In this document: one piece after another, positions 46,557 to 62,873 of the stretch | Layout: every line of letters begins with the position of its first letter | How positions within the stretch are numbered: the first letter of the stretch is position 1 | NCBI GenBank assembly: GCA_964467655.1 | Contig: CAYXSN010000005.1 | Span: 16,920 to 80,919 of the forward strand | Reading direction: 5' to 3' | DNA: 64,000 nucleotides | DNA from: an uncultured Candidatus Saccharimonadales bacterium | GTDB lineage: Bacteria; Patescibacteriota; Saccharimonadia; UBA4664 | The notes under the pieces: generated by a model | The model's input: the letters and a program-made list of their open reading frames with translations, nothing else | The model's database searches: none | What the model was told of the DNA's origin: nothing | Made by a program: the position numbers and the translations under genes

Positions 46557-46560
46557 TCAT

Positions 46561-47421: not shown

Positions 47422-47447
47422 CCCACCCCACCACTCAGCTCACTATA
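47422..47447 (+). promoter_or_regulatory. Copy 1 of conserved 20-nt motif CCACCAnnnAGCTCACTAT (T7-promoter-like core)
   Basis: cccaccccaccactcAGCTCACTATa, 30 nt upstream of ATG 47477. Confidence 0.4.
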
Positions 47448-47476
47448 AATATCGAAACCAGGGTAGAATCGTAGGT

Positions 47477-48610
47477 ATGGCATCGAATAATGACGAAATA
47501 ACCGAAGCTGCGATGAAAGCCCTAGCGGTGGGCACGAGCGGCATTATCGGCATGAATGATCCAGTGGCCGGTGCGGCAATTGCCACCGGAGCGGAAGGTA
47601 TCACACTCGCCTTACAGGCAGCTGGGTCGGCCATTAATAACCTCAGAATCAACCGAGCAAAACGGTTAATCAAGCAAGCCGCCGAAAACGCCGGAAAAAG
47701 CCCAGAGGAGTTCTGGAGCCTCATATGTCAATCCGAAAAGCTGCTTGACCTAGCACTGGTTGCGCTTGAGGCCGGGTCAAAAACGGCTCTCAAGTCCAAA
47801 ATAGACCTGTACGCAAAAATCCTGGCGGGCGAGATCGATAGCCACGAAGACATGCTCGATGCGGTAAAAATCCGCTTTCTCACCCTGGCCCTCATTGAAA
47901 AACCACATCTGGAGATTCTACACGTTATCTCCAAGCCATCACCCAACATTACTCCTAAAGACGACGCTGACTTAGGCTGGGCAAACAATGACATCGCCAA
48001 GGCATTACCCAGTTACGAAATTGTCCTCCCGGCCCTCATTGAACCAATGCTTAGCAATGGTCTCGTTTGGAATAACGGCTTGGGCCGGTATGGCTACAAA
48101 CCATACTGGAAGCTAACTGAGTTAGGCAAAGACTGCTTGCAGCTGTTGTCAGGCGAGAAACCGGTACATCACGAACCAAGTAAACCCGGCACACCACAAG
48201 AGCCACATCAACCGCACTCCATAATTCAGCCCTTGGCAAAAAATGATTTTAATATCGTTAAGCTTGAAATCGTCGATAACAACGGCAGACCCATATCAAA
48301 ACCATTTCGCCTCAAGAATGGCCAAAACGTTTTTAGATGCATCGCAACCTACGCCGATGGCTCAACTGAACCCTATAGTCCCTATTGGACGTGTCCAATC
48401 ATCCTAAACCGGGGGAGGGAAGTCGATATCGACGTTTGGGGAACTTTTGACCAAATGAAACATGCCGAGGCTCCCATAACAGCCGGTGGCAACCATATGA
48501 AGTACACGAGCCTAAGCTGCTGGGTCTTTCCACCCATAAAGGAAACACCCACCGGCAATAGCGAGATTCCTCATGACGGCGTTGAATTTGACTATTCAGA
48601 GATACAATAA
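47477..48610 (+). CDS. Hypothetical protein (377 aa)
   Basis: Start at ATG 47477 (MASNND) directly downstream of motif copy 1; no recognised domain. Confidence 0.4.
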   Translation: MASNNDEITEAAMKALAVGTSGIIGMNDPVAGAAIATGAEGITLALQAAGSAINNLRINRAKRLIKQAAENAGKSPEEFWSLICQSEKLLDLALVALEAGSKTALKSKIDLYAKILAGEIDSHEDMLDAVKIRFLTLALIEKPHLEILHVISKPSPNITPKDDADLGWANNDIAKALPSYEIVLPALIEPMLSNGLVWNNGLGRYGYKPYWKLTELGKDCLQLLSGEKPVHHEPSKPGTPQEPHQPHSIIQPLAKNDFNIVKLEIVDNNGRPISKPFRLKNGQNVFRCIATYADGSTEPYSPYWTCPIILNRGREVDIDVWGTFDQMKHAEAPITAGGNHMKYTSLSCWVFPPIKETPTGNSEIPHDGVEFDYSEIQ

Positions 48611-48684
48611 GCTCATGGACTTGGAAATGTGGTAGAGGCACCGAAACCCGTCGGCTCGTAATGCGGACATTGCGGCCTGCTACC

Positions 48685-49017
48685 CTAGTCCTCAAACCAA
48701 TAGTGGTGCATCTGCCCCATGAACTCTTTTGTTATAGGAAACCCCGAAGCATCACCAATAACCGAATCAATTTCGCATGAGGGGCATAGCGCCGTTTTAC
48801 CATTATCAACCCAATCATCAATTTCATCCGGCGTAAAAATCTTGAGACAGTAAAAGCACCCGCACACCTTACTCGCACCAAGTTCAACACGGTGCTGCGA
48901 AGAATGTTCATGCGCTTTTACGATTTCCGGCGGCATTGATGCTTTGGCTCGCTCTAAAGCCGCAACAACCTCAGTCATTTCATCTTTTGGCTTGCCTTTA
49001 GGTCCAAATGGTCTCAT
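48685..49017 (-). CDS. Small Cys-rich (zinc-ribbon-like) protein
   Basis: CGCFYC...CPSC cysteine pairs, 110 aa. Confidence 0.4.
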   Translation of the reverse strand: MRPFGPKGKPKDEMTEVVAALERAKASMPPEIVKAHEHSSQHRVELGASKVCGCFYCLKIFTPDEIDDWVDNGKTALCPSCEIDSVIGDASGFPITKEFMGQMHHYWFED

Positions 49018-49045
49018 GGATATATGATATCAAATTGCCCACTAG

Positions 49046-49070
49046 CCAACCCACCACCCAGCTCACTATA
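49046..49070 (+). promoter_or_regulatory. Copy 2 of conserved motif CCACCAnnnAGCTCACTAT
   Basis: ccaacccaccacccAGCTCACTATa, 28 nt upstream of ATG 49098. Confidence 0.4.
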
Positions 49071-49097
49071 TCTGGCTAACCATGAGATAATTCAAGC

Positions 49098-49808
49098 ATG
49101 ACCAAACCTTACGGAATGAAAGCTGAGCTTAAAGATTACCCTTGGCGTGATTTGCGTGAAGAGCTGGACCTCAACGACATACACCTCAAAATCGAAAACG
49201 GCGCCCTAGAAGTCGGCTATGACCGAGAGGAAGATGAGGCAAAAGCTAAGGAGGTAGCCACGCTATATCTACAAACCCATAGTCTGCGTATGGGCTTTAA
49301 AGTCGCGGCCAACTTCAACCGTACATGGAAGCCAACCCCAGCTGGCGGAGTAGCCCATGCCATGGCACTTCAAAGCTCAGTAAAATTTAACGATCGCTTG
49401 CAGGCAACAATCCACCAAGCCACAATCTCCGGTCGTGCCCGTATCGTCAGCCAACAAATGGTAGACACCGCCAGTTTCACTAACGACACTCTCATGGTGC
49501 AAAAAGCTTTGAAAGACCCGGCGCTAAAGCAGGCTATAGCATATTTCGGTGACGAAGTAGCCGATGCCAGTAAGCCCCTCTACGGCGTATACAAAGCCAT
49601 CGAATCCATAACCAACCACCTTGGCAAACAGGGCCGTAAAAAGCTAGCCCAACTGGCTAGCCAGAGCGAATCATACATCTCCGACCTCATGGAGACCACA
49701 CAGTACAGCCGGCATGCAGTTACTCAAGCTCGCCAGCACCTAACCGAGAAGGAGTGCATTACGCGAGCAAAGACCCTAATTGAAGCTTATGCACGGACAA
49801 TTAGCTAG
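49098..49808 (+). CDS. Hypothetical protein (236 aa)
   Basis: ORF downstream of motif copy 2. Confidence 0.4.
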   Translation: MTKPYGMKAELKDYPWRDLREELDLNDIHLKIENGALEVGYDREEDEAKAKEVATLYLQTHSLRMGFKVAANFNRTWKPTPAGGVAHAMALQSSVKFNDRLQATIHQATISGRARIVSQQMVDTASFTNDTLMVQKALKDPALKQAIAYFGDEVADASKPLYGVYKAIESITNHLGKQGRKKLAQLASQSESYISDLMETTQYSRHAVTQARQHLTEKECITRAKTLIEAYARTIS

Positions 49809-49875
49809 CTTTGCTAACTACCAGAGGCATTAAGGGCATACTGGACGGAACAGACAACTGCAACCCGATTATTCA

Positions 49876-50487
49876 CTAGTTGGTTGTTGGTTCGCTCTCG
49901 GGCTTATCTAATGAGCTGAGAAGTTTGATGGTGGTGTATCTTTTTGGGGTTCCTGCCGCAACAAGTAATGTTAACCCGAGCCAAATAATTGCCAGTATCC
50001 ATCCGCCAACCGGGTCGAACCCGACATCAAATTTGGGGTTTCTAACGAATGCAGCAATTAATACAAGCAGTACCAGCGATATAACGACATTTCGCACGGC
50101 TTTAAACAGATAAACTCTTGGCTCTATATATTTTGGCGCCTCATCCCGGTAGACGTAAGCATCAAGCATCGTTTGATCGTAGTTTCTGTTCTTCAGATAT
50201 TCCTTAACAGCGAGATACCTTACTGATTGTTGCTTCATTCGCCCAACTGCCGAAAGAAATTCTGTATGAATATCATTTTGGTATCCGGCCAACCTAACGG
50301 CTACCTCATGAGATACCTCAAAGCGTTTTTCAAAATCTTTAGCCGTTAGCACTACCGCATGCTCAGATGACTTCGAAATTGGTCCGGGGGTTTCGTCACC
50401 TATATAAATCTCAGATGCATCCGAAAAGCCTATGTAAATTTCGCAGTAGACCTCAGCCGTCAAATCGATTGCGGTAAGCTTCTTCAT
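49876..50487 (-). CDS. Hypothetical protein with two C-terminal TM helices
   Basis: Start at internal ATG 50487 preceded by GGAGAG RBS; C-terminal hydrophobic helices. Confidence 0.4.
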   Translation of the reverse strand: MKKLTAIDLTAEVYCEIYIGFSDASEIYIGDETPGPISKSSEHAVVLTAKDFEKRFEVSHEVAVRLAGYQNDIHTEFLSAVGRMKQQSVRYLAVKEYLKNRNYDQTMLDAYVYRDEAPKYIEPRVYLFKAVRNVVISLVLLVLIAAFVRNPKFDVGFDPVGGWILAIIWLGLTLLVAAGTPKRYTTIKLLSSLDKPESEPTTN

Positions 50488-50533
50488 ACTGGATTCTCTC
50501 CTTGGTTCCATTGCCACTGCAGTAAAATCCTAT

Positions 50534-50893
50534 CTAGAAGACATCGTAAGGAGAAAGTATTACTCCGCCATCGCTATCGAGAACCTGCCATTTTTCCTTC
50601 TTCCGGAACAAAGTACGCTCAAGTTTAACCTTGCCTTCCAGGATTGATGCCAGACCCTTGAGCATCACCTGTTTGGGTTCGTCCTGATATATACAATTCT
50701 TATACTCGATATGGATAAAATCCCAATCTCCTTTTGGCAAATGAACGACGCTGACTTTTGCATCAAATTTATCATCGTGAATTACGACATCGCCAAAAAC
50801 CCTATCATTTGAGGAATGCTCGTTATATCTGTACTCGACGCCGCGATCCGATAACAACTGTTTTAATTCTTCGGGCATGTTATTTTCTTTCAT
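50534..50893 (-). CDS. Immunity-like small protein, paralog C of Rhs-associated array
   Basis: C-terminal LEGKVKLERTLFRKKEKWQVLDSDGG aligns with paralogs at 50890..51291 and 51909..52289. Confidence 0.45.
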   Translation of the reverse strand: MKENNMPEELKQLLSDRGVEYRYNEHSSNDRVFGDVVIHDDKFDAKVSVVHLPKGDWDFIHIEYKNCIYQDEPKQVMLKGLASILEGKVKLERTLFRKKEKWQVLDSDGGVILSPYDVF

Positions 50894-51291
50894 CGAGGCG
50901 AGAATTGCTCTAGCGCAGCGGCGGGCACTTTTCGACTTTCAGGATTTATGCGCTGCCAAACATCGAGTTCTTTTCCCGACTTATCGGTAAAAATATATTG
51001 TTTTTTCCTTGTGAGCGTCAGCTTCACGACATATTGTTTTTCGAGAAGCGCGCGGATTATCAACTCATAAATTTCATCAGGGTTATCTGGAAATTCATTT
51101 CCCCCAAATCCGATAGAGATAATCGACCAAGCGTCATTCTTTTTAAGCAGGTATATGTAGATTACGCGATGTTCATTTTTATTGTCTCTAATCGTTACCG
51201 TCAAACTCGTACTATCTACGCCTACGGATGGCTGCTCAATAGAGACGTCGTATTTGTCCTTAATTTGATCTAGTAATTGCGTTATGGTCAC
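50890..51291 (-). CDS. Immunity-like small protein, paralog B of Rhs-associated array
   Basis: GTG start at 51291 with GGAGGG RBS; C-terminal LEKQYVVKLTLTRKKQYIFTDKSGKE aligns with paralogs; upstream extension in track ORF rejected. Confidence 0.45.
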   Translation of the reverse strand: MTITQLLDQIKDKYDVSIEQPSVGVDSTSLTVTIRDNKNEHRVIYIYLLKKNDAWSIISIGFGGNEFPDNPDEIYELIIRALLEKQYVVKLTLTRKKQYIFTDKSGKELDVWQRINPESRKVPAAALEQFSPR

Positions 51292-51334
51292 TTTATTTTC
51301 CCTCCTACTAGGAAATCGAACGGTAAGGGCACAC

Positions 51335-51793
51335 TTAATAAAGCCTGTTTGCCCAGGACTGATTGAAGACGGCCTCCGTGGTCTCAGTTCTGCCCACATC
51401 CTCACCGATTTCTATTTCGGTCTGTTTATCCCATTGCTTTGGTAGCGAGCGAGTTTGGTTACCATCCGCCTTAAACACTGCCGCCCTAAGAATGTTGCCA
51501 TCAAGCTCTTCTGTTATCAGCTTCGCTGCTTTAGGATTACCCGTAACATATTCGTAGTACTTTAAGCCGCTATCAACCCTTTTTCTAAGCATTATCAGCT
51601 CAGTGGCAAAAAGAACTACTTCAAGAACTGTCCCCGCCGCATCGGTCGCCTTATATTCGGATTTTGGCTCAATGAAATGTTCCAGACCTCCTTCAAGATC
51701 GGCTAGGTCTTTATATGTTTCGGTTTTGCCGTCATGCCCGATGGTTATCGGGAGTTGGGGTTGGTAGTTTTGAGGGTTAACTATGATATGCAT
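51335..51793 (-). CDS. Small hypothetical protein in immunity gene array (distinct family)
   Basis: ATG with GGAGG RBS 7 nt upstream; 152 aa. Confidence 0.4.
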   Translation of the reverse strand: MHIIVNPQNYQPQLPITIGHDGKTETYKDLADLEGGLEHFIEPKSEYKATDAAGTVLEVVLFATELIMLRKRVDSGLKYYEYVTGNPKAAKLITEELDGNILRAAVFKADGNQTRSLPKQWDKQTEIEIGEDVGRTETTEAVFNQSWANRLY

Positions 51794-51908
51794 TTTAGAA
51801 CCTCCATGGTGACTGTAATCTCATATTCGGCCTACATTTGCATAATGTTCCGACCAATCTTACCCATGTATGGGGTCAACTCAAGTCACGCCCCACCAAG
51901 AAAGAGAC

Positions 51909-52289
51909 CTAATCTCGAGGCCAATATTCTTTTCCAGACTGGCCCGTCACAACATATTTTTTTTGACCAAAGCCAAACAATGTTTTTTTCTCGGCTATTT
52001 TCCCCGATAATATGCCATCGAGTGCTTCAAATAAGCTTTCTGGGCTTTCGTCGGTGTATTCTCCGTTGAGATATTTCACCGCAATCAATTGCGCGCCTAG
52101 GGAATTATTTTTATTCTCGACGAGTTCCACGACTACGACATTGTTCGAGTTACCTGGGCGAATCTCGATCTCCATAAAGCTTAGGTTGGGACTTTCTTTG
52201 CTCGCCGTTAAAGGCCGAGTTACCTCACATTGCCCTGAATATTTTTGAGCGAGTTCTTCAACCCTATTAACTGCATTTAATTTAGCCAT
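51909..52289 (-). CDS. Putative cognate immunity protein of Rhs toxin (paralog A)
   Basis: Starts 2-5 nt after Rhs stop with GGAGGAAGG RBS embedded in Rhs 3' end; C-terminal LSGKIAEKKTLFGFGQKKYVVTGQSGKE motif shared with paralogs B and C. Confidence 0.5.
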   Translation of the reverse strand: MAKLNAVNRVEELAQKYSGQCEVTRPLTASKESPNLSFMEIEIRPGNSNNVVVVELVENKNNSLGAQLIAVKYLNGEYTDESPESLFEALDGILSGKIAEKKTLFGFGQKKYVVTGQSGKEYWPRD

Positions 52290-52291
52290 TT

Positions 52292-55200
52292 CTACCACCT
52301 TCCTCCTACGATGAAGTCCCAGTGACGATCTTTACCGCGCCACTTCCAACCAGCACGGAAAGTCTGGCGGTTACCCGGAAAGCGCGACCACCCTAACTTG
52401 AAACTTCCATAATTATTTAGTTTACCGGCACCACTGCCCAGAGTTGCGTGTCCAAAGAGCTTACTATTTACCCCAATGACCGGCATTCGTGACTGTACAC
52501 GCGCCAACTTAGTACTAACCGCTTCAACTCCCTTAAGAAACATCCCCGCCCTACCGGCATTTACCGCCTTTGCTGCAACCTTGGTCAACAAGCCCGCGCC
52601 CACCAAACCACCAGCAGCAACCAACGCCTCCCCGTACCGTCCCTGAGCGACATTCCCTGCGACAGCAACCGCAGAGCATGCTATGCCGATCGGACCAGGT
52701 ATAAACGAGCCTATTGTAGCAACTGTGGTAACAACTTTTGCCGCAGCCTTAAACTTGTCCCAGAATCCAGCATTCCCATCTAAGTCGAAACCGTTTACTG
52801 GATCAGTCGGGTACACATAGCCGTTCTCGTTTCCACCCTCCTGCGGATCGACCTGGAGGAACCTCCCAATCTTCGCCAGGTACACCCGTGCCCCCATCTC
52901 AGTCGGAGCAAGAGCAAAGGCTGTTTCGGTGTCCTTTTCGTGCTGACCGACCCAGCCATAGGTAGAGCCGGTTGCGGTGTTGTTGGGGGAGCTAGCGACC
53001 GGGTTACCGAAGGGATCGTACATGAAGGTACCCGTTTGCGTACCATTGGCGTCGGTGGTTGCCATAGTGTCGCCATGAACATTGACGAGGGAGAAGACGC
53101 GGTTAGCCGGAGCTGTTTGGTTCGGTCGTACAGTCAGAAGAACTCCACCGGGCAGTTGCTCATACTTCTCGACGATGGCATTGCTTGCATCGAGGAGTAG
53201 ATCGGGAGAGTCGCCAGCGCCCGTAAACCCATACTTGTTGGTAGTCGTAGAGCCATTGACCAGCACCCGCTGGATAGTCCTACCCTGGACATCGCGAGTG
53301 TAGGTAGCAGACTTGCTACCTACAGTAATCGAGCTGTTGCGATCACTTGAATCGTACGCAAACTGAGTGACAGGCGTGGTGCCAATTTGAGTGGTGTTGC
53401 CATGCGCATCGTAGACGGGGCTCGTGACGGAGGCATCGGAGCTACTTACGAGGCGGTCAGCGTAATCGTAACAGTAGGTCGTCGTGACCCCATTTACCGT
53501 TTGGCTGGTTCGGTTGGAGTTTTTGTTGGCATTGGCATTGTAGGTACCCGTGCAACTAGTAGGGGAGCCAAAACCGTAGCTGTAGGTATTTGAGCCAATG
53601 GTCGCAGAGGTTAGGCGGCCTGCTTTGTCGTAAGTGTAGCTCTTGCTTTGACCAAGCTCGGTGCCAGAGATGATTTGGCCGGATTGGCTGCGAGTAACAG
53701 CGTCGGTAACATGCGTCGTACCATTACCGAGCGTGTAATCCATGCCCACCGTCCGGCCGAGAGAGTCGCGGGAGATGGCCAGAGCTTGCGAGCCAGCGGT
53801 AGGGTAGGTGACGCCTGACAGGCGACCGTAGCCATCGTAGCTCGGAACCGCCTGGGTAACCCCGTCGAGGGTTTGGGTGGTTAAACGATTGTAACTATCG
53901 TATGTGAACCCTTCTGCGCCGAGCGGACCGGAACGCGAGCTGAGGCGGCCGAGAGAGTCGTAGCTCGTTGTGGTGGTCTGGTTGTTGGCGTCGGTGTAGC
54001 TGACTGTACGGCCAAGGAGGTCGCTAGTGCTGGTAATGGTGCCATTAGCATCGGCCGTGCTCACAACGAAGGGATTACCACCAACGGACCAGTTGTTAGT
54101 GACGGTGCGGGCCGGAGCGCTACCAAAGGCCGGGATGGCAACTTGTGTGACTCGGCCGCGAGAGTCGTAGGTGGTGCAAGTCCAGGAATCACTATTGTAG
54201 CGAGTAGCCACCACCCGACCAGCTGCGTCGTAAACTGTTTCAGTGGTACGGCTAATTTGAGCGCCAGCTCCATCTGGGTCGGCTTCAGCCTTGAGCTTCA
54301 GCATACCTGCCTGGCTCACGGCCGCTCCGCCCACGCAGGGGTTAGCCCGGGTTTCGGTGGCACCGTAATAGGCGTATTGCGTACTCGGGTTACCTGCATC
54401 GTTGCCCGGCAGCACCTTAGTGAGCTGCCGCAAGTAGCTACCGCTAGTGCCTTGGGCTTCGTAGGTACTTGAGCTAGTGTAGTTGAGACCAGCAGAATCG
54501 AGGGTATTGGACTGTGCGAGGCCGAGCTCGGGATTAGCGCCGTAATTGGTAGTCGATTGCGTATCACCAACCGCAGCGCTTGAGTCAAAGGTCTTTTGGC
54601 TCGTCGCTAGTCCGTAACGGGGCGTCAAGATCGAACCAAGCACGCTCGTCTCACTCCCACCCGGCGCGGTCTTGAACAGTTCCAGATGACCGTCGGCGTC
54701 GAGCGTGGAGCCGACGGCTTTATTGTAATAGTCGAGCCGGACGCGGTGCCAGGAGTTGGCGGTCGGATTCGTGAACACGCCAACGGTATGGTCGCGGTAA
54801 ACACCGTCAGCCCAATCATCAGCCACAAGAATATCGTCAATCCAGAGGCGGGCACCATCGTCGGACTTAACTTTGAAAGTGTGGTCGCCGGTTTCGGCCA
54901 GCTTAATTGAACCGCTCAGCCGCAAGCCCCAACCGTAAGTGGACTGGCTCGGCGTAATGGGCTGCGTCGAGCCCCAATTCTTCACCACATCGCCGTTTGT
55001 GGGGCCAACGCCAGTTTGGTGGCTCCTGGGGGCGCCGGTGAGGACCTTGGTGCTCACGCCGGTGCCATTGGTAGCAATTGCGACGTCGTAGTAGGTGGCG
55101 GCTAGGCCGGTAATGCCCTCGTCATAGCCAGTTTGCGTATGGGGAGTTGAGCTGACATTAGCCGTCAGCGGCTTGCGGTCGGTCCCATACCAACTGCTCG

Positions 55201-58200
55201 GAGCGGGGCCATATTGATCCGTCGGCCGGTCGTCCTCGTCATAGATAGTAGTGGACTTGAGTCCAGCCGCATCCGTCGAAGAAAGCACCATATCCTTGCG
55301 AGGTGCCCCCGTAGTTGGGTCAACATCCCACTCGGTCTTGGTGGTGAGTCCAGATAACCAGCTCGACGGCGTACCAAAGGTTGTTCCGGTTGAAATACCA
55401 GCCATAATCTGGTCACCACCCGCCCCGGCGGTGCCGTTATTGAACGAGCCGAAGTCGGCCTTACCGTCAGCGTTTGCATCACCCGTAAACGGCTTCATGC
55501 CAAACCAGTTCCATCCCGCTAGGCTCTGAACATAGGTGGTGCTGTTAGCCAACGGTGAGCTCGCTCCATACAGGGTATGAAGGTCAGTGCCGCTCGGTGT
55601 ACTGTGGACCAATGCTACGTCATCATAAGCATCGCCATTAAAGTTGCCCGCAGCCAGGTTTACCTTCGACCAAACCCAGCCATTTGCAGCAGGGAGGCTG
55701 CGGATGTAGGTCGAGGTATTAGCGAATGGTGTCGTACCACCATTGAGCATATGAACATCAATGCCGTCACTGGCTACCTGATGGAAGATAGCCACGTCAG
55801 AGTAGCCATCGGCGTTAAACTTCCCGCCCGCCAGTTTCATCTTGGACCAGGCCCAACCGTTTGAAGCCGGTAAGTTTACTACCCAGGTAGAGCTATTGCC
55901 GAAAGGCGTCGAGCCACCGTAGAGGGCGTGTATCCCGACACCATCATCAGAGAGCTGATGGAAGATAGTAAGGTCAGCTTTACCATCACCGTTAATATCA
56001 CCAGGCACCAGCTTGAACTTGGACCAGGCCCAACCGCTAGAAGAGGGCATATTGCGTAGTAAGGTGGGGCTGTTATTGGAGGGTGAGCTGGTTCCATATA
56101 GTGCGTAGACATCGGCCCCGTCTCCGGTGGCCTGTCGAACCAAAGCTAGATCAGCTTTCCCATCGCCGTTAAAGTCACCCACAAGGGGCTTGATGCCATC
56201 CCAGCTCCAGCCCGGCAGGTTAGCCCAACGCACCAGCGGTTGGTAACCGCTACCCGTAGATGCTGCAAACATAACCTCCGAGCCACTCGCACCGCTGGCA
56301 CCGTTGTTGAGCAAGGCAACATCGGCTTTACCGTCGCCGTTAAAGTCACCCGTGATGGGGATCGTGCCGTTCCAGTTGAAGCCGTACTGCTCAGTATCGG
56401 TCAGCGTGCGATACGTTGTATCGTACGTGACTTTACGACCTCCGGTTACGGCAGTATCCGGGTGCATGATGGTGTAGCCAGCATCGCTACCAGCAGCCGA
56501 GTAATAGCTGTAGCTATGAGACTGATGAGCGGCTCCAGCAGTAGCAGCGGGCATGGTTATGCTTGAAACGCGGCCAATGGCGTCATAGGAAATGGTCGTA
56601 AGCTCGTTTCCATCCTGAGTACGAACGCCAGCCGAGATAGCATCATTCGCCAACGAATCCCGCATCGATGTGATGCGGCCGAGCGAATCAAAGCCATAGT
56701 CGCTAATCTCACTCCCGGGGTGGATTAGCCGAGCAAGCCGCCCCGTAGACGAGTAGGCAAACTGCGTAACCTGGCTGTCTGACGTAGTAACCGCACAAAT
56801 CATGCCAGCTGGTACGGCCGAGAAGCCCGAGGGAACCGAAGGACATCCGGCGTCGCCACTGTAGTAAACCTTAGCCCAACGACTTGAATCTACCCCATCG
56901 GTAACCTGGGTGAGATGGGCAGGGAGACCACTGTAACTGTACTGCAAAGCCGCCGGATTGCGATCGTCAGCCGGGCTCGTGCTCAGCTTGAGCGTGCCGT
57001 CAGTGTCGAAGACATAGGTACGGCCATCACTATCCTGGAGAGTGATGGTGCCGTCACCATTGCGGACCATGTGGCCGGTCTCGTTGACCGGAGGCGTGTA
57101 GCCCGAGCCGGTCCATTTATACTCATGCGTTTCACCGGTCGAGTCACGCAGAACCACACTATTTACGCCAATGGTCGCAAAATCATAACCAAGATCGCCA
57201 TCGGCATCAATGCTTAAGCCCCAGCCATCTGGCAGCACTTGAGCCTGCGGCAGCAGCCAGTCCGACGGCACCGGTAGGGTCTTGTCGATACCTGGCCCAT
57301 CAACATAGAGTCCAAGACTGGCATTGCCAGTCACCTCACGGTATTCAACCGTGATCGACTTAGTCTGTCCGGCAGTCATGGTGACGCCAGTTGAACCCGG
57401 CGCAGTCGTTGGCCAAGCGGGTGAGGTGGTGGAAGTAGACCAGTTATCGAGCTGGGTTACGCCATCCACGATAATCTTGATACCATCATCGGCCTGACCG
57501 CCAAACTTATAGGTGCCGTCTTGGGGTGCCTTAAAGTACCCCGACCAACGCACTACAAAGTTGTCTGCTGGCCCGTTTGGTACCGGCGAACCAGCACCCC
57601 AATCCATCCCGAGCGTCGTGTCAGTACGAGCCAAGAAGCGGCTACTGACATCCGACTCGCTCGAAGGGAATGAGCTTCCGGTGTAATAACGCCCGATGAG
57701 ACCGTGCGGCGTAGCCACTGGCCGCACCCCGGTCTGAAGCCATTCAGTTGGCACAACTTGGTCAGAGAAGCCAACGCCGCGAACCCATAAACTGTTATAA
57801 GCTGCTCCAGTCGCCTCGGTGTAATCAACCGTAATGGGCACGGCCTGACCAGCCGTCAGGGCAACTCCCGTTCCCCAATGTTGGTTGGTGTAGCAACCTC
57901 CGCTGGTCGTATCCAGGACTACCTGACTATTGAGGGTAACTTTAACCGTATCATCACCAACACAGCCCATCGTGTAGGTGGTGGTATAGGGAGCCACAAA
58001 GTAGCCGCTCCAGCGAGCGCTAAAGTTATCTGTCGTTACCATGCCGGTGTACGGAGAGCCGGTATTCCAGTTGTAGTCGACGTTGGGCTCGACTCGGGTC
58101 AAAACGGGGTTGCCGGAAAAGGTGGTGTTGTTCCAGTACTGTGCTACCAGACCCTGGCGAGACCGTTGCGGCGAGTTGTAGTCAAGACCGATGCCCAAGC

Positions 58201-60124
58201 TACCGCCAAGTGCCGCGATTGAATGACTCTTGGCTCCAGTCGTTAAATTACCCGTAGCCAGGTCGACACTAACCGGGCCCACCGTATCAAACGCTTGGGT
58301 CGCATCCTTGCCGTTGCGCATATCAACTTTAAACGAGTATGTAGGGCTATAAACCGAAGCAGATTTGAGATAGGTGCCCTGGTAGCTATCCCACACCAAA
58401 GACTGCCAATAATAGGTTGTCCCGTCCTGCAAGACGTTGTCCGGCACGGTCCACTGTGATATCGGGGTAAGCCCCGAATCGGCAACGACACCGCTCACGC
58501 TTTGAATCGTGTTATATGGGTTCGAACCAGGAACGGTTTTGCTCGTTCCAATGATGTACCGATACTGCAATGGCCCGGGTCCATCTGGGTCGGTCGAAGC
58601 CGTAGTTTTTAGAAGTGGCTGGTTGGTCGTGGTTATGCCTTGGTCGGCAGGGGAACCGGCCGCAATCAGGCTTTGTGACGGAAGCGATTCGTAGTCAAAC
58701 CAGACGAGCGTACGGTCGTAGGCCAGTAGTTTGTAGGAGTTCGTGTTAGCCTCTTCGCCGTGGACAATCATCCAAGCGCTGTAATCGCCAGCCGCGGCCG
58801 CTCTCCGGTACATATCCGACACATCAATGTCGCCTGTCGAGCCAACCGTCCCACTCTGCTCACCATAAGCATAGTCGATACAGCCATACCCGAAGCATCC
58901 CGCGTGGTCGAGGTAAACTGAGCGGTTATCGTAGGTGCCGTAGTAATGAACCCCGTCGGGAGTGGGCATCTCGACGTGGAAGATGGCTTGGACGATATAT
59001 TTGCCCGCCACCGACGAATATGGGGAATAGAACATGAACCGCCAGATATTGCCACTAACGTTACCCACACTGTTGCCACAGCCCTGGCCCGGGTTGCAGA
59101 CATAGCCGTCCGACTTGTAGTTAACGTAGTTGCTCCCGCTATAGCTCCAAAACGACGGATCAATCACCAGAGGGAATTTATCGGTGGTCTGCTTTTGCAT
59201 CCAGTCCGAATCAAGCGTAACGGTGAGGCGTGAACCATTTACCGATTGCCGGACAATTGGTGCGGCCCCCAAGATGCCCTCAGTAGCAGTGGCGATAGTC
59301 GGAACCGGAAGCTTAATGTTGCTCAAAGCCCCGTCGAGCTTAAAACCGCCCGGATTGTCGGTATCAGGCAAGAGGTTTGCGCCCGAGAAATCAAACGAAA
59401 AAGTGCTAGCGGCGGCCCGGCTCTTTATGACGATGCTCTCTTTAACCTCTGAACCCGACAACTGGTACATCAGATCAATGCCCGGCCAGACATTACGGTA
59501 CTTCACGATCTGGTTAGGGGCGGTACCGGTGACTTCTGGCTGGACTTGGCTTGCGCCGAGGGGTTTGAAAGTGACTGTCTGTCCGCCTTGATTTAGCTCA
59601 ACTCCTTGTGTAGGCGAAACTGCGCCAAAGCGAGCCTGCCAGGAGTTAGCTTTGGTCTTCCATTTACCATCCGTGGCGTCTTGAGCCAGAGACACATCGA
59701 CGTCTTTCCATTGGCCATTTTCTCGATAGCTCGTAGCTACTAGGCTACGGCGAAGGCTTTTGCTGCCGTCGGCGTTGAGGAAAACGGTGTCATTTTCAGT
59801 CCGACCTTCATTGAGAGCTTGCACGTGCCGTCTATCGCTTGGATGACCATCTTGCTGTGCTTTGCGGTCAGCATCCAGCTGCTGTTGGACAGAGATTGGG
59901 AGTGCGGAGGCTTTGCCAGTAGGGAGGGTGGCGTCGGCGGCCGGGGCGCTTGCGGGGGTGGTCTCAGCTAAAGCATGCGGTGTCCGAGCCTGATGCTTAT
60001 TGTAGGCGTCGATGAGCAATCCCACGCCAACTGAACTCAAAGTAATTGCGCCAACCATAAATATATTGAACGCAGAATAATGGAGCTTACGATCAATTAC
60101 TTTTTTGACACGCTGATACCACAT
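52292..60124 (-). CDS. Giant Rhs/YD-repeat polymorphic toxin (2610 aa): N-terminal TM anchor, PA14 domains, FG-GAP/VCBS repeats, YD repeats, RHS core, variable C-terminal Gly/Ala-rich toxin domain
   Basis: Two PA14-like segments (ARWSGYF... / VRWSGYFKAP...), six GDFNGDGKAD-type FG-GAP repeats, many YD repeats (YxYDxxGR), RHS core ending YVYPTDPVNGFDLDGN, then ~150-aa divergent tail. Confidence 0.85.
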   Translation of the reverse strand: MWYQRVKKVIDRKLHYSAFNIFMVGAITLSSVGVGLLIDAYNKHQARTPHALAETTPASAPAADATLPTGKASALPISVQQQLDADRKAQQDGHPSDRRHVQALNEGRTENDTVFLNADGSKSLRRSLVATSYRENGQWKDVDVSLAQDATDGKWKTKANSWQARFGAVSPTQGVELNQGGQTVTFKPLGASQVQPEVTGTAPNQIVKYRNVWPGIDLMYQLSGSEVKESIVIKSRAAASTFSFDFSGANLLPDTDNPGGFKLDGALSNIKLPVPTIATATEGILGAAPIVRQSVNGSRLTVTLDSDWMQKQTTDKFPLVIDPSFWSYSGSNYVNYKSDGYVCNPGQGCGNSVGNVSGNIWRFMFYSPYSSVAGKYIVQAIFHVEMPTPDGVHYYGTYDNRSVYLDHAGCFGYGCIDYAYGEQSGTVGSTGDIDVSDMYRRAAAAGDYSAWMIVHGEEANTNSYKLLAYDRTLVWFDYESLPSQSLIAAGSPADQGITTTNQPLLKTTASTDPDGPGPLQYRYIIGTSKTVPGSNPYNTIQSVSGVVADSGLTPISQWTVPDNVLQDGTTYYWQSLVWDSYQGTYLKSASVYSPTYSFKVDMRNGKDATQAFDTVGPVSVDLATGNLTTGAKSHSIAALGGSLGIGLDYNSPQRSRQGLVAQYWNNTTFSGNPVLTRVEPNVDYNWNTGSPYTGMVTTDNFSARWSGYFVAPYTTTYTMGCVGDDTVKVTLNSQVVLDTTSGGCYTNQHWGTGVALTAGQAVPITVDYTEATGAAYNSLWVRGVGFSDQVVPTEWLQTGVRPVATPHGLIGRYYTGSSFPSSESDVSSRFLARTDTTLGMDWGAGSPVPNGPADNFVVRWSGYFKAPQDGTYKFGGQADDGIKIIVDGVTQLDNWSTSTTSPAWPTTAPGSTGVTMTAGQTKSITVEYREVTGNASLGLYVDGPGIDKTLPVPSDWLLPQAQVLPDGWGLSIDADGDLGYDFATIGVNSVVLRDSTGETHEYKWTGSGYTPPVNETGHMVRNGDGTITLQDSDGRTYVFDTDGTLKLSTSPADDRNPAALQYSYSGLPAHLTQVTDGVDSSRWAKVYYSGDAGCPSVPSGFSAVPAGMICAVTTSDSQVTQFAYSSTGRLARLIHPGSEISDYGFDSLGRITSMRDSLANDAISAGVRTQDGNELTTISYDAIGRVSSITMPAATAGAAHQSHSYSYYSAAGSDAGYTIMHPDTAVTGGRKVTYDTTYRTLTDTEQYGFNWNGTIPITGDFNGDGKADVALLNNGASGASGSEVMFAASTGSGYQPLVRWANLPGWSWDGIKPLVGDFNGDGKADLALVRQATGDGADVYALYGTSSPSNNSPTLLRNMPSSSGWAWSKFKLVPGDINGDGKADLTIFHQLSDDGVGIHALYGGSTPFGNSSTWVVNLPASNGWAWSKMKLAGGKFNADGYSDVAIFHQVASDGIDVHMLNGGTTPFANTSTYIRSLPAANGWVWSKVNLAAGNFNGDAYDDVALVHSTPSGTDLHTLYGASSPLANSTTYVQSLAGWNWFGMKPFTGDANADGKADFGSFNNGTAGAGGDQIMAGISTGTTFGTPSSWLSGLTTKTEWDVDPTTGAPRKDMVLSSTDAAGLKSTTIYDEDDRPTDQYGPAPSSWYGTDRKPLTANVSSTPHTQTGYDEGITGLAATYYDVAIATNGTGVSTKVLTGAPRSHQTGVGPTNGDVVKNWGSTQPITPSQSTYGWGLRLSGSIKLAETGDHTFKVKSDDGARLWIDDILVADDWADGVYRDHTVGVFTNPTANSWHRVRLDYYNKAVGSTLDADGHLELFKTAPGGSETSVLGSILTPRYGLATSQKTFDSSAAVGDTQSTTNYGANPELGLAQSNTLDSAGLNYTSSSTYEAQGTSGSYLRQLTKVLPGNDAGNPSTQYAYYGATETRANPCVGGAAVSQAGMLKLKAEADPDGAGAQISRTTETVYDAAGRVVATRYNSDSWTCTTYDSRGRVTQVAIPAFGSAPARTVTNNWSVGGNPFVVSTADANGTITSTSDLLGRTVSYTDANNQTTTTSYDSLGRLSSRSGPLGAEGFTYDSYNRLTTQTLDGVTQAVPSYDGYGRLSGVTYPTAGSQALAISRDSLGRTVGMDYTLGNGTTHVTDAVTRSQSGQIISGTELGQSKSYTYDKAGRLTSATIGSNTYSYGFGSPTSCTGTYNANANKNSNRTSQTVNGVTTTYCYDYADRLVSSSDASVTSPVYDAHGNTTQIGTTPVTQFAYDSSDRNSSITVGSKSATYTRDVQGRTIQRVLVNGSTTTNKYGFTGAGDSPDLLLDASNAIVEKYEQLPGGVLLTVRPNQTAPANRVFSLVNVHGDTMATTDANGTQTGTFMYDPFGNPVASSPNNTATGSTYGWVGQHEKDTETAFALAPTEMGARVYLAKIGRFLQVDPQEGGNENGYVYPTDPVNGFDLDGNAGFWDKFKAAAKVVTTVATIGSFIPGPIGIACSAVAVAGNVAQGRYGEALVAAGGLVGAGLLTKVAAKAVNAGRAGMFLKGVEAVSTKLARVQSRMPVIGVNSKLFGHATLGSGAGKLNNYGSFKLGWSRFPGNRQTFRAGWKWRGKDRHWDFIVGGRW

Positions 60125-60186
60125 CTGATTGGCTCCACCATTAGTATTTTAAACAGTACATGCTTGGTTTATGGCTTGGCAAGAGT

Positions 60187-60209
60187 TCACCCACCACTCC
60201 GCTCACTAT
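60187..60209 (+). promoter_or_regulatory. Copy 3 of conserved motif CCACCAnnnCGCTCACTAT
   Basis: cacccaccactccGCTCACTATt located between Rhs 5' end and next gene; no + strand gene immediately downstream. Confidence 0.3.
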
Positions 60210-60239
60210 TTCTTCACAATTGCCTCCTTTTTATAATCG

Positions 60240-60587
60240 CTAGTTCTTAAGATACCGACCATAAGTATCCATAAGGTCCTCACGATTGCGCGGATTATTG
60301 AGCTGACCCAGTATCATAAGACCGCTGAACCCATAGCCAACCATAAAGGCAATGAGGTAAGCCGGGAACCAGGCCCGTAGACCAGCATAAACAGCAGCCG
60401 ATATTGCCAGCCAGACTAACGGGCTAGCCAATGTTACAACCCACGGAATTTTGTCTACTCGGCCAGCCCTCTTCCAGCGATACAACTGAGGTAGCGCCAA
60501 AAACAGGGGATAGATAATTTGAGCCGTCGCTAGCGCCCCAACGCCACAACCAATCATTAAAGCAATACAACCAAGAATAAGTACCAT
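60240..60587 (-). CDS. Small hypothetical membrane protein (3-4 TM)
   Basis: Hydrophobic helices, 115 aa. Confidence 0.4.
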   Translation of the reverse strand: MVLILGCIALMIGCGVGALATAQIIYPLFLALPQLYRWKRAGRVDKIPWVVTLASPLVWLAISAAVYAGLRAWFPAYLIAFMVGYGFSGLMILGQLNNPRNREDLMDTYGRYLKN

Positions 60588-60634
60588 TTCTGGCTCCCTT
60601 TGTTAAAGCCATAATACAGTTTTTTCAAGATAAA

Positions 60635-60672
60635 CTCCATGTATACTGCGTGGAGTAGACATGGAGCTCCAT
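60635..60672. promoter_or_regulatory. Operator-like palindromes (CTCCAT ... ATGGAGCTCCAT) upstream of XRE regulator
   Basis: Perfect 12-bp palindrome ATGGAGCTCCAT plus CTCCATGT-N16-ACATGGAG inverted repeat, 14-50 nt upstream of XRE start. Confidence 0.4.
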
Positions 60673-60685
60673 ATCTAATGGAAAC

Positions 60686-60946
60686 ATGTCAGGCAATCTC
60701 CAGGAACCCGAAAACGAAGATCGCGAGCTGAAACAGCAATTCAGCCTACGGCTGGGTAAACGCCTGCGCGAAGTCCGCGAGTCGAAGCAGATTACGCAAG
60801 AAGAGCTCGCTAACCGCGCCAACATTTACAGGACTTATGTGGGCCATATTGAAACTGGCACCTACAGCCCGACAGTCTACACCATGTCACGCTTAGCCAA
60901 GGCAATGGGTATTGAGTTGGCAGAGTTATTGCGCGATTTAGATTAG
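60686..60946 (+). CDS. XRE-family helix-turn-helix transcriptional regulator
   Basis: LGKRLREVRESKQITQEELANRANIYRTYVGHIETG classic XRE HTH. Confidence 0.7.
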   Translation: MSGNLQEPENEDRELKQQFSLRLGKRLREVRESKQITQEELANRANIYRTYVGHIETGTYSPTVYTMSRLAKAMGIELAELLRDLD

Positions 60947-61024
60947 CTTTAGCGATGCAGCCCCTGGAGCCACTCTACCACCGCCAGCAAGCTTTCAGGT
61001 TAGTGGGGTTTTAGGCTAAGTTAG

Positions 61025-61050
61025 GCCACCCCACCATCTAGCTCACTATT
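61025..61050 (+). promoter_or_regulatory. Copy 4 of conserved motif CCACCAnnnAGCTCACTAT
   Basis: gccaccccaccatctAGCTCACTATt, 52 nt upstream of ATG 61102. Confidence 0.4.
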
Positions 61051-61101
61051 CCATCCAGGTATAAACTAGGTGGCAAACAGATATGAGGATGAGCATTACA
61101 C

Positions 61102-62401: not shown

Positions 62402-62677
62402 TTGGCCTATAAGCCAGAGGAACTAATGAGTATGAGACATAACGAACAATTTAATACGCAGGACATGGGCCTGGCGGTAGCGCTGGTTTGCAAAGACTTT
62501 GCACTGCAAGACCTTGGCCCATCCGCTGGTGGCTCACGGTATACATTCCACTTTGAGGCCACTCCAGGAATCGATGAAGCCGCCCAGGAATACTGGAACG
62601 GCAAACTAACGGTCGATGCCAAGCAGTTTTGGAACGAATCAAAGAACCTTAAAACGAGGCTCTATAGCCTTCGCTAA
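62402..62677 (+). CDS. Small hypothetical protein (prophage-region-like)
   Basis: 91-aa ORF. Confidence 0.3.
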   Translation: MAYKPEELMSMRHNEQFNTQDMGLAVALVCKDFALQDLGPSAGGSRYTFHFEATPGIDEAAQEYWNGKLTVDAKQFWNESKNLKTRLYSLR

Positions 62678-62681
62678 AACC

Positions 62682-62873
62682 ATGAGGCTTTCAGATGAGC
62701 AGCTAGCCAAATACCAGGAAGCACACCTAAAGGCGTTTGGTAAACCCATATCCAAAGAGAACGCCTTAGTACAAGGCCTGGCGTTACTCCAACTCGTGAA
62801 AGCCTCAACCCGAACCAAATCACCCAAAGATTACAAGGACAATGAAAATGACTCCCCGCAACGAAACACCTGA
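62682..62873 (+). CDS. Small hypothetical protein
   Basis: ATG 62682 (MRLSDEQLAKYQEAHLKAFG); overlaps primase start. Confidence 0.3.
   Translation: MRLSDEQLAKYQEAHLKAFGKPISKENALVQGLALLQLVKASTRTKSPKDYKDNENDSPQRNT

Follow-up and report, generated by a model that had tools for sequence, protein, structure and literature searches.

A bipartite polar site in tRNA-integrating elements, mostly of ultra-small bacteria, and its possible role in replication initiation

Phage P4 pairs its alpha protein with the sites ori and crr, and the SaPI initiator Rep has its ori 3′ of the rep gene. Classical iterons are clustered direct repeats. At ColE2-type origins, Rep is a site-specific primase and the origin is a single asymmetric site of about 30 bp. 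Short asymmetric sites are also known from cluster A mycobacteriophages, in which stoperators occupy many intergenic gaps in a non-random orientation. In pRN1, the origin is situated immediately 3′ of the gene encoding the primase/helicase/winged-helix protein (PMC4234260).

We analyzed a 64 kb stretch of DNA (64,000 nucleotides, the window) from a Saccharimonadia relative. It contained four exact matches to CCACCANNNMGCTCACTAT, all on the + strand (47428–47446, 49051–49069, 60191–60209, and 61031–61049). No match occurred in 100 dinucleotide-preserving shuffles (0 expected by chance), and no further copy was found in the whole 64 kb with up to three mismatches tolerated. The earlier note had described these four same-strand copies; all four proved exact, the third starting at 60191 rather than at about 60190. 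The conserved block was longer than first described: it comprised (C/A)ACCCACC or ACCCCACC, six variable nucleotides, and CTCACTAT, 22 nt altogether (M1–M4, Table 1). Distances from the last T of the site to the + strand starts were as claimed (30 nt to 47477, 28 nt to 49098, and 52 nt to 61102), and M3 indeed had no close downstream + strand gene, the nearest being that of the XRE regulator at 60686, 476 nt away. The genes following the copies are not paralogues, so gene duplication does not account for the repeat.

Table 1. Copies of the site and genes around them (window coordinates)
Feature	Position	Strand	Site sequence	Remarks
238-aa ORF	46705..47421	+		stop 3 nt before M1
M1	47425..47446	+	ACCCCACC-ACTCAG-CTCACTAT	exact match; 25.1 bits (matrix from other loci only)
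377-aa gene, no assigned function	47477..48610	+		proposed module M1–M2; start 30 nt past M1
M2	49048..49069	+	AACCCACC-ACCCAG-CTCACTAT	24.5 bits
236-aa gene, no assigned function	49098..49808	+		first gene past M2
Five small ORFs after RHS gene, cargo	49876–52289	-		proposed module M2–M3
2610-aa RHS / PA14 / FG-GAP protein, cargo	52292..60124	-		proposed module M2–M3
M3	60188..60209	+	CACCCACC-ACTCCG-CTCACTAT	23.6 bits
115-aa gene	60240–60587	-		called gene
XRE-family HTH regulator, 86 aa	60686..60946	+		
M4	61028..61049	+	ACCCCACC-ATCTAG-CTCACTAT	25.7 bits
407-aa gene, no assigned function	61102..62325	+		variable slot from regulator to DUF5659
DUF5659 gene	62432..62677	+		conserved core gene
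Primase-helicase gene, 723 aa, 5′ part	62848..64000	+		continues to ~65019, past the window
Fifth copy, inverted	~64974–64999 (L063 13873–13898)		CTACCCCACCATTGGGCTCACTGTTG	24.6 bits; same contig, ~1 kb past the window

According to the gene calls on record, M1–M4 are all intergenic. At the position of the 238-aa ORF, relatives encode a serine recombinase; no recombinase similarity was detected for this ORF (46705..47421). M2 occupies the gap from which a 97/110-aa gene on the minus strand and the 236-aa gene on the plus strand diverge. M3 lies within a string of minus-strand genes, with the start of the RHS gene (60124) on one side and the 3′ end of the 115-aa gene, toward which it is oriented, on the other. 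M4 separates the XRE regulator gene from the 407-aa gene heading the element core, and two relatives (L183 and L099) carry a copy at the equivalent position. The slot of the 407-aa gene is filled in relatives by a 427-aa protein, a TPR protein, or a reverse transcriptase. The fifth, inverted copy is part of the primase-helicase gene, at its 3′ end.

Eighty loci were fetched via protein similarity to the primase alone, and a scoring matrix was built from them. These loci share a bipartite asymmetric site of 22–26 nt, ACCC[C/T]ACC-N6-[C/T]TCACTAT, with 222 matrix matches in 925 kb as against 3 in shuffles. M1–M4 are the instances of this site in the window element: under the relatives-derived matrix they scored 23.6–25.7 bits, and the sole match in the first 47 kb of the window reached 13.4 bits. 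Without seed bias, the conserved 3′ box was only TCACTAT, followed by T-rich sequence and not by a G-rich start. The site is kept across elements with primases merely ~55% identical. It is restricted to the elements: 114 matches were found in 265 kb from primase start to recombinase end, against just one weak match in 142 kb of host flank. The assignment of the copies to a mobile element in the earlier note was borne out. The pattern also occurred in 29 viral contigs, about the estimated chance number; multiple copies were not found among these contigs beyond one inverted pair.

The family is very large and comprises integrative elements residing in tRNA genes, mostly of CPR/Patescibacteria—ultra-small bacteria; it has apparently not been described previously. 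More than 2341 homologues of the window primase were found at E ≤ 1e-20, and it was 52% identical over its full length to the primase of a motif-carrying Margulisiibacteriota MAG. The conserved core (84 loci) encodes DUF5659, a DnaG-primase/MCM-like helicase/winged-helix fusion, two small proteins, and a large serine recombinase; in 57 of 84 loci, the DUF5659 gene immediately precedes that of the primase-helicase. The large recurrent cargo of the 84 elements consists of restriction-modification enzymes, kinases, TPR proteins, and reverse transcriptase. The recombinase ORF ran into an opposite-strand tRNA gene in 11 of 12 loci tested, and the integration crossover maps to TGGCTCCG, common to the recombinase tail and the tRNA 3′ end, 57–95 nt from the site. 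Most distal copies in relatives either follow the recombinase stop codon immediately or border on convergent cargo genes. Once the element has integrated into a tRNA gene, a copy at the recombinase stop forms its left end. A displaced recombinase tail with its stop and the site was present at element left ends and between tandem elements (L135, L158, L137, L107, L125, L130, L134, L103, and L108).

The orientation of the site tracks the element axis, not adjacent genes. On the left side of the primase gene, 58 copies in relatives were "+" and 4 were "-"; the primase 3′ end carried 111 "-" and 43 "+" copies at fixed positions. At least one inverted copy was found there in 68 of 71 unique loci, including the contig of the window, with 1–3 copies per locus within the last ~130 nt of the gene. 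Where two arms form an inverted pair, their offset is fixed (39 nt in 29 of 37 pairs) and their spacers agree at only 2.5 of 7 positions; the arms are independent sites, not a hairpin. In about half of the loci, among them the window's contig, the inverted copy has no partner in that part of the primase gene. The AT content between the arms was 0.61 against 0.57 for the gene; with a value barely above that of the gene, an AT-rich unwinding element is not evident. Codon usage in the part of the primase tail overlying the site departs from the rest of the gene: serine is encoded by AGT in 85% of cases (14% elsewhere), glycine by GGG/GGT in 98% (32%), and valine by GTA in 75% (21%). This strong synonymous-codon bias within the primase ORF shows that the site is under selection at the nucleotide level.

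Our best explanation, which we hold tentatively, is that the copies are binding sites for the replication initiator of the element and that the distal ones indicate where tandem or decayed elements have their left ends. The primase-helicase is the only large DNA-binding protein encoded in every element. It consists of a zinc-binding domain, a DnaG RNA-polymerase domain (PDB 2au3, E 7e-13 by sequence and 5e-13 by fold), an MCM-like AAA+ ATPase (8q6p_5, TMt 0.61), and a C-terminal winged helix (residues 651–701; its MarR match was weak, E 0.03); the model of the protein has pLDDT 80. A putative initiator with a predicted sequence-specific DNA-binding domain is encoded, and its last ~15 codons are formed by the fifth, inverted copy; the site-encoded tail (residues 705–723) is disordered in the model. 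In L009 and L030, where the protein is split, the site remains with the helicase-winged-helix gene. The site is a putative protein-binding site, and the C-terminal winged helix, judged by its ubiquity and position, is the best candidate for its binder; DUF5659, a zinc-ribbon protein of ~190 aa, and the recombinase, present in this contig and most relatives, are other possible binders. The copies in the primase tail would form the core of the replication origin, a placement that parallels primase-helicase replicons in which the origin coincides with the initiator gene or lies immediately 3′ of it.

Like P4 alpha, SaPI Rep, and pRN1 ORF904, the predicted initiator is one large protein combining a primase, a hexameric-helicase-type ATPase, and a C-terminal winged helix. 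As with ori/crr of P4, the site is found at the 3′ end of the initiator gene and at a second location kilobases away, beside the integrase/att end; integration into a tRNA gene is a further feature shared with P4/SaPI/pRN1-type elements. Unlike these elements, the present ones have an MCM-like helicase in place of an SF3/D5 or DnaB-like one and use a large serine recombinase as integrase; their sites are embedded in the coding tail and not placed past the gene, and no AT-rich unwinding element is evident. The putatively bound sites are also few, 22 nt long, bipartite, and strictly polar instead of being clustered short direct repeats; from classical iterons they differ in being few and dispersed.

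In the window, M1–M4 would each mark the left end of an element, the elements having accreted in tandem and partly decayed, with proposed modules at 47.4–49.0, 49.0–60.2, and 60.2–61.0 kb and a live core from 61.0 kb. Recombinase remnants were not demonstrated beside the window copies, so for M1–M3 this reading is an analogy with the relatives. The distal copies may serve as auxiliary initiator sites and may also act as short homology patches for module exchange.

An exchange function could, on a view that seems to us somewhat unlikely, be the primary one: cargo modules or whole elements would be joined and exchanged at the site by a site-specific enzyme or by plain homologous recombination over ~26 bp of identity, giving loosely integron-like arrays with one copy bounding each module. 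Similarity between loci does break exactly at either edge of the site: L162 resembles L166/L174 for at least 150–575 nt rightward and differs within 4 nt leftward, while L107, L125, and L135 have the recombinase tail in common leftward and diverge immediately past TAT. Two to five "+" copies, each before a different cargo block, were found in L141, L125, L132, L134, L103, and the window; a convergent cargo ORF stops at the internal TAG of the site in at least 10 loci; and the spacers of distal copies are more alike within a locus (5.7 of 7 positions) than between loci (3.6 of 7). Integron attC arrays likewise have one copy per cargo block 3′ end, same-orientation block arrays, and mosaic breakpoints at the site. 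However, such a breakpoint pattern is expected for any conserved site between variable DNA, and the near-universal inverted copy within the primase ORF is left unexplained. The site does not fit a serine or tyrosine recombinase core site (att, attC, or res): TTACCCCACC-N6-CTCACTAT has no inverted half-sites and thus lacks the dyad symmetry that these enzymes require, and the integration crossover falls outside it, in the tRNA 3′ end. In contrast to attC, the site is neither palindromic nor foldable, the recombinase is of the serine type with its crossover in a tRNA-like core, and, unlike integron cassettes, the blocks may hold several genes in both orientations. An operator, insulator, or polar roadblock, bound by DUF5659, the zinc-ribbon protein, or a regulator and controlling or isolating transcription units, is an unlikely alternative role. 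The site resembles stoperators as a short asymmetric sequence repeated in numerous intergenic gaps of a single mobile genome; it is tight between convergent genes, lies at the boundary of the replication and recombination modules, has individually conserved boxes, and in relatives is reached from the TAT side by RNA polymerase ending the primase or a cargo operon. Its orientation, however, follows the element axis and not transcription; relative to transcription it is inconsistent in the window (M1, M2, and M4 before co-oriented genes, M3 in a minus-strand operon). In L129, L158, L113, and L103, the site is immediately followed by a canonical bidirectional terminator hairpin, so a roadblock would be redundant there. 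A conserved repressor gene does not accompany the site, and regulators vary across the family (HTH72 in 24 loci, XRE in the window). A hairpin or 3′-end signal in transcripts is extremely improbable: the primase 3′ end has inverted pairs that could fold, and one RNA sense (AUAGUGAG..GGUGGGGUAA) would end primase and cargo transcripts in many relatives, but the spacer positions of the arms are not complementary, the partner arm is missing in half of the loci, no Rfam match was found at E ≤ 1, and the sense relative to transcription is not constant in the window.

The earlier note had read the motif as contiguous and fixed-length, hence unlike a -35/-10 promoter, and this description holds: the motif is also asymmetric, and none of the 12 sigma-70 consensus matches in 46000–62500 coincided with a copy. 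A sigma-70-type promoter was rejected, as the two boxes are just 6 nt apart and -35/-10 elements need 16–18 nt. The note's main proposal, a set of T7-class promoters served by a dedicated RNA polymerase or sigma factor, was not supported. Neither protein was found in the conserved core or recurrent cargo of the 84 elements or among the window ORFs of at least 700 aa (FtsX permease, PEP synthase, and RHS protein only), and orientation follows the element. It is very doubtful that the site is a T7-class-like promoter for a single-subunit RNA polymerase or special factor that a helper phage or another part of the host genome would encode. The likeness is real in form: the site is contiguous, asymmetric, and ~22 nt long (T7-class promoters, ~20 nt), and its 3′ box TCACTAT(A/T) is identical to positions -7 to -1 of T7/SP6/K11 promoters. 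Three of the four window copies lie 28–52 nt upstream of co-oriented genes, which makes a transcriptional role of these copies possible; similar arrangements exist in a few relatives (25 nt in L183/L099 and 43 nt in L137), and a "+" copy 129 nt before the primase stop is oriented toward the downstream recombination genes. Yet the family shows no general tie to gene starts: only ~10 of ~55 distal copies across relatives are upstream of and co-oriented with genes, about three quarters face a convergent gene 3′ end or sit in an ORF, and the majority of those at the primase end would drive antisense transcription of the primase gene. The upstream box ACCCCACC is C-rich, whereas positions -17 to -13 of the T7 class are AT-rich; the region past TAT is T-rich, with low information and no conserved start; and viral contigs hold single copies at about the chance rate. 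The fallback proposed in the note, a recombination or repeat element, is nearer the evidence.

The promoter-like form could also have an origin within the replicon, although we regard this as decidedly unlikely: the element's own DnaG-type primase would use the site as a start signal, its winged helix and zinc-binding domain reading the 22-nt site and laying a primer at a fixed position and in a fixed direction. In a variant of this idea, the copies would be promoters for the single-subunit RNA polymerase of a helper phage, through which the element may sense infection. As in ColE2, a primase-type initiator reading an asymmetric site would give promoter-like architecture and polarity; in contrast to ColE2, the protein family is unrelated, each element has several copies, and the reading of the site is putative. 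To our knowledge, origins primed at a specific site have so far been described only for unrelated proteins, ColE2 Rep among them. If true, a start signal for the element's own primase would account for the T7-like architecture of the site, its strict polarity along the replicon, and the presence of a copy within the initiator gene.

A pattern search of the 64-kb window with CCACCANNNMGCTCACTAT returned four exact matches, all on the + strand; no match was found in dinucleotide-preserving shuffles of the window, and allowing up to three mismatches added no further copy in the window itself. These four same-orientation copies had been claimed in the earlier note. In register, the conserved block was 22 nt long and consisted of ACCCCACC or a one-base variant, six variable bases, and CTCACTAT. 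According to the stored gene calls for the contig, all four copies (M1-M4) were intergenic. The note was also right in placing three of them shortly upstream of + strand start codons, at distances of 28-52 nt, and in leaving the third without a directly downstream + strand gene, as M3 was flanked by two minus-strand genes. The genes after the copies were unrelated to each other; paralogy was rejected, and the repeat is thus not carried by gene duplication. No family assignment was found for these genes, and near-identical DNA for 46-64 kb was absent from phage, plasmid, and E. coli collections. A Chi-like or tRNA-3'-end (CCACCA) reading was dropped because the family consensus lacks CCA and the 22-nt bipartite unit is conserved across hosts.

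The window belongs to a metagenome contig of 82.8 kb, and the presence of housekeeping genes (enolase, PEP synthase, FtsX permeases) identifies it as part of a bacterial chromosome. Among named enolases the closest, with 79% identity, came from Candidatus Saccharimonadia, which makes the host a member of the CPR/Patescibacteria. The genes between ~46-47 kb and the end of the contig are those of a mobile element. The GC fraction falls from ~0.56 to 0.43-0.48 across 46-52 kb, and the region of this drop and of a ParE-family pair may be the left limit of the island. The giant RHS protein is apparently cargo of this CPR mobile element, a polymorphic toxin by its looks, and the small ORFs downstream of it would be immunity or orphan modules. 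Pfam, PADLOC, and PHROGs searches of the neighbouring genes gave nothing beyond XRE, DUF5659, RHS/PA14, and ParE. The last ORF of the contig presumably encodes an IS30-type transposase N-terminus, according to our own reading of the sequence; the assembly was probably broken by a repeated insertion sequence, and because of this break the recombinase and tRNA end of the element are missing. A 407-aa protein identical to that of the window was encoded in three other assemblies (L066, L067, L068), followed by different genes: a DUF5659 protein of 83 aa (81 aa in L067, as in the window) and a 63-aa gene. L066 also had a different primase downstream, with a length of at least 717 aa. An identical gene with different downstream genes indicates a recombination breakpoint between them, and no copy of the site lies at this breakpoint.

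Features of the window, its contig, and related loci (L numbers denote fetched relative loci or contigs; L063 is a stretch of the window's own contig that reaches beyond the window end)
Feature	Sequence	Coordinates	Strand	Remark
Site copy M1	window	47425-47446	+	CCACCANNNMGCTCACTAT match starts at 47428
Site copy M2	window	49048-49069	+	CCACCANNNMGCTCACTAT match starts at 49051
Site copy M3	window	60188-60209	+	CCACCANNNMGCTCACTAT match starts at 60191
Site copy M4	window	61028-61049	+	CCACCANNNMGCTCACTAT match starts at 61031
Family-matrix match ATGCCCACCGCTCGCAATCACTATTT	window	28261-28286	+	lone, 13.4 bits, far from the element
ParE-family toxin gene and upstream 76-aa partner	window	45634-46122	-	just left of M1
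Unknown small genes	mobile-element part of contig
Five small ORFs after the RHS gene	window	49876-52289	-	no family match
2610-aa protein	window	52292-60124	-	PA14, FG-GAP, RHS/YD-shell domains
TGGCTCC	window	60130-60136		56 nt upstream of M3
TGGAGCC	window	60965-60971		61 nt upstream of M4
XRE regulator, 407-aa unknown protein, DUF5659 (in this order)	island right part
723-aa Toprim protein	window	from 62848	+	extends past the window end
188-aa protein	beyond window			after the 723-aa Toprim gene
ORF starting MGKQYRQLTKEDRQTISALRGRGLTNPEIA	L063	14603-14693		window-equivalent ~65704-65794; cut by contig end
763-aa reverse transcriptase	L129	7076-9367	+	RVT_1, YADD motif
tRNA genes overlapped at the 3' end by the recombinase ORF	L107, L125, L139, others	12968-13042, 15159-15233, 13728-13802	opposite to recombinase
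Inverted copies inside the recombinase gene	L149, L162, L164, L166, L173, L174	14253, 14177, 14237, 14190, 13392, 10170
Cargo ORFs ending on the TAG of the site	L107, L130, L139, L144, L149, others	302, 2765, 1712, 4349, 6652
Anaerolineae matches	L004, L025, L038, L038	5455, 307, 2551, 5834

The exact window pattern was scanned against one genome per species, and for the most part the matches were due to chance. Several Patescibacteria matches and one Margulisiibacteriota MAG had TAC CCCACCA…GCTCACTAT in common, sometimes followed by an inverted copy; here the motif lay inside the 3' end of a large gene, the product of which was 52% identical over its full length to the 723-aa protein of the window, a primase-helicase. 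More than 2341 homologues of this protein were found at E<=1e-20; CPR lineages accounted for most of the named ones, and a few came from MAGs that bear the label Planctomycetes or Thermodesulfovibrionia. Eighty metagenome loci were fetched by protein similarity alone and then searched for the motif. A matrix iterated on these loci alone converged to TTACCC[C/T]ACC-N6-[C/T]TCACTAT[T/A] and identified 222 sites in their 925 kb versus 3 in shuffled sequence. With this matrix, M1-M4 scored 23.6-25.7 bits, and a fifth, inverted copy (24.6 bits) was found at the 3' end of the primase gene on the same contig, ~1 kb past the window. The motif is a property of the element family rather than of the window locus. 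The match at 28261-28286 is probably a chance one. The four Anaerolineae matches were unrelated to the family and represented one orthologous stretch; in these MAGs, GGCTTCCCACCAGATAGCTCACTATAATACAAACCCTATG stands directly upstream of a gene starting MSKLTHLDE, with two copies 3.3 kb apart in L038. Viral contigs, scanned with a single protein, gave only distant N-terminal primase matches.

Clustering of the ORFs of the fetched loci yielded a core of conserved order: an HTH gene, a variable gene of ~400-760 aa, DUF5659, a 65-aa gene, the primase-helicase, a ~174-aa gene, a ~199-aa zinc-ribbon gene, and a large serine recombinase. The variable slot before DUF5659 was occupied by a reverse transcriptase in L129 and by TPR proteins or unknown ~400-aa proteins in other relatives. 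The core is preceded by a region of variable cargo, encoded mainly on the opposite strand; type III and type I/IIG restriction-modification systems, a kinase-TPR protein, TPR proteins, and reverse transcriptase recur in it. In 11 of the 12 loci tested, the recombinase ORF ran into an opposite-strand tRNA gene (Asn, Glu or Gln), with the crossover near TGGCTCCG in the tRNA 3' end. This overlap indicates that the elements integrate in tRNA genes and that integration replaces the last ~30 recombinase codons with tRNA-derived sequence; excision would restore the displaced codons. Inside the recombinase gene, at one recurring position ~600 nt from its start, the site was observed once more as an inverted copy of lower score (15-29 bits).

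With the primase gene taken as the + strand, 58 "+" and 4 "-" copies of the site were found to the left of this gene across the loci. In the last ~130 nt of the primase ORF, 111 "-" copies were counted, most often at -90 or -48 relative to the stop, and 43 "+" copies, most often at -129. At least one inverted copy was present at the primase 3' end in 68 of the 71 unique loci, accompanied by a "+" partner in 37; in 29 of these 37 pairs the arms stood at a fixed offset of 39 nt. All 83 strong in-ORF inverted copies shared one reading frame, NSExxGGV, and the encoded peptide is the disordered tail of the protein model. Within the site, Ser was encoded by AGT in 85% of cases (14% elsewhere in the same genes), Gly by GGG/GGT in 98% (32%), and Val by GTA in 75% (21%). 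The synonymous positions are nearly frozen, i.e., the site is selected at the nucleotide level. At the variable positions, the arms of one pair were alike at 2.5 of 7, versus 2.0 of 7 between loci. The spacers were not complementary, and a hairpin or cruciform formed by the inverted pair was rejected; the two arms behave as separate sequence-specific sites. The site is confined to the elements: 114 matches were found in 265 kb between primase start and recombinase end, and one weak match in 142 kb of host DNA beyond the recombinase gene.

In two loci where the recombinase gene was not fused to a tRNA (L135 and L158), the site started 2 nt past the recombinase stop codon; in L137, the distance was 72 nt. 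Integrated elements carried the displaced ~95-nt recombinase tail, the stop, and the site at their far left. This unit was often tight against the stop of a convergent cargo gene (-6 to +27 nt, about 20 loci). The reverse complement of the site has TAG-TGA in one frame, and unrelated convergent cargo ORFs stopped on this TAG in at least 10 loci. Two to five tail-stop-site units in series, each before a different cargo block, were found in L125, L103, L134, L141, and L132. Most simply, elements would have integrated repeatedly at the same tRNA and later decayed, and each "+" copy would be the left end of an element that is, or once was, present. The window, with four "+" copies left of the core and one inverted copy in the primase tail, would fit this picture drawn from its relatives; M4 directly heads the core, likewise in relatives L183 and L099. 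Recombinase remnants beside the window copies were not found by tblastn with recombinases of the CPR loci and of the three closest relatives, and the 238-aa ORF before M1 was rejected as a remnant on the same negative searches. Over a short stretch the final codons of this ORF resembled the recombinase tail, but too weakly to serve as evidence. Upstream of M3 and M4, TGGCTCC and TGGAGCC resemble the crossover core TGGCTCCG/TGGAGCC, which in relatives is located 84-95 nt before the site; that they are scars left by former left ends is conceivable, seven bases being too few to judge.

Structure prediction for the window's primase-helicase gave a model of four parts with a pLDDT of 80. Its zinc-binding and DnaG RNA-polymerase domains match Aquifex primase 2au3, and the MCM-like AAA+ domain matches 8q6p_5 (TMt 0.61); residues 651-701 form a C-terminal winged helix and residues 705-723 a disordered tail. 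The primase-helicase was the one DNA-binding protein found in every locus, and in loci with a split protein the site remained with the helicase-winged-helix gene. Residues 588-706 showed weak, non-significant profile matches (E about 0.1-0.2) to the mitochondrial transcription termination factor MTERF1, a factor that occupies an asymmetric site as a monomer and forms a polar roadblock.

Regarding the function of the site, the earlier note had proposed a T7-class promoter set for a dedicated polymerase or sigma factor. Neither was found in the core or the recurrent cargo of the fetched loci, and the proposal was not supported. The supposed tie to gene starts did not hold family-wide: the copies are oriented with the element and not with the genes. 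Roughly three in four distal copies point at the 3' end of a convergent gene or sit within an ORF, and transcription from most of the primase-end copies would be antisense. After removal of the seed bias, the 3' box was TCACTAT, followed by T-rich sequence of little information, which reduces the T7-core resemblance to 7-8 bases. The pattern occurred in only 29 viral contigs, about the estimated chance number, as a single copy in each except for one inverted pair. The note had correctly set aside a -35/-10 promoter, since the boxes are 6 nt apart, too short a gap for sigma-70-family recognition, and no sigma-70-like site was predicted at any window copy; its attribution of the motif to the mobile element of the region also agrees with the confinement to elements across the fetched loci. 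A dedicated promoter is improbable on the whole, and it is retained because the three window copies upstream of genes are compatible with a local transcriptional role.

The site is an asymmetric, bipartite DNA word of 22 nt that is selected at the nucleotide level, element-confined, and replicon-polar, located nearly always in the primase-helicase gene tail and again beside the recombinase/att end. We tentatively predict an initiator site, at somewhat less than even chances: an element-encoded protein would bind it, the candidate being the winged helix of the primase-helicase, and the gene-tail copies would form the origin core. There is precedent for this: P4 alpha binds repeats at both crr and ori, kilobases apart. 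Initiators with primase and helicase functions serve the P4 and SaPI satellites (PMC7145576). In pRN1, a primase/helicase/winged-helix protein is encoded immediately 5' of the origin, and such proteins were proposed to assemble downstream of their own gene (PMC4234260); the likeness is partial, as the site of the present family is in the initiator gene tail itself. Against the initiator prediction, an AT-rich unwinding element was not seen between the inverted arms, and the partner arm is missing in half of the loci. Between loci, similarity stops exactly at the left or right site edge, which is compatible with module exchange there, but any conserved island in variable DNA would look similar; we consider a module-junction recombination site unlikely. 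An operator or roadblock of another element protein is rather improbable, and an RNA element hardly credible, with no Rfam match on window positions 44-64 kb.

CPR/Patescibacteria are uncultivated and, to our knowledge, their mobile elements are barely characterised. A full-text literature search for the gene combination and for DUF5659 found no paper, and the element family is perhaps undescribed. Integrative elements that replicate themselves and carry cis sites for their initiator are a known kind; this family departs from it in pairing a DnaG-MCM-winged-helix initiator with a serine recombinase, in having the site within the coding tail of the initiator, in the nucleotide-level conservation of the site across elements only ~55% identical in protein, and in the strict site polarity relative to the element. 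For those who study CPR bacteria and mobile elements the finding is of use and comes as something of a surprise, although it is not the dedicated transcription system proposed earlier; as a cautionary case, likeness to the T7 promoter core over 7-9 bases does not make a promoter. One 22-nt DNA word marks a family with thousands of members, which carry restriction-modification systems, reverse transcriptases, kinases and, in the window, a giant RHS toxin. The site can serve as a marker to find such elements and to delimit their left ends and tandem arrays, and together with the fusion of DnaG primase and MCM-like helicase in bacteria it provides a candidate origin/initiator pair for biochemistry.
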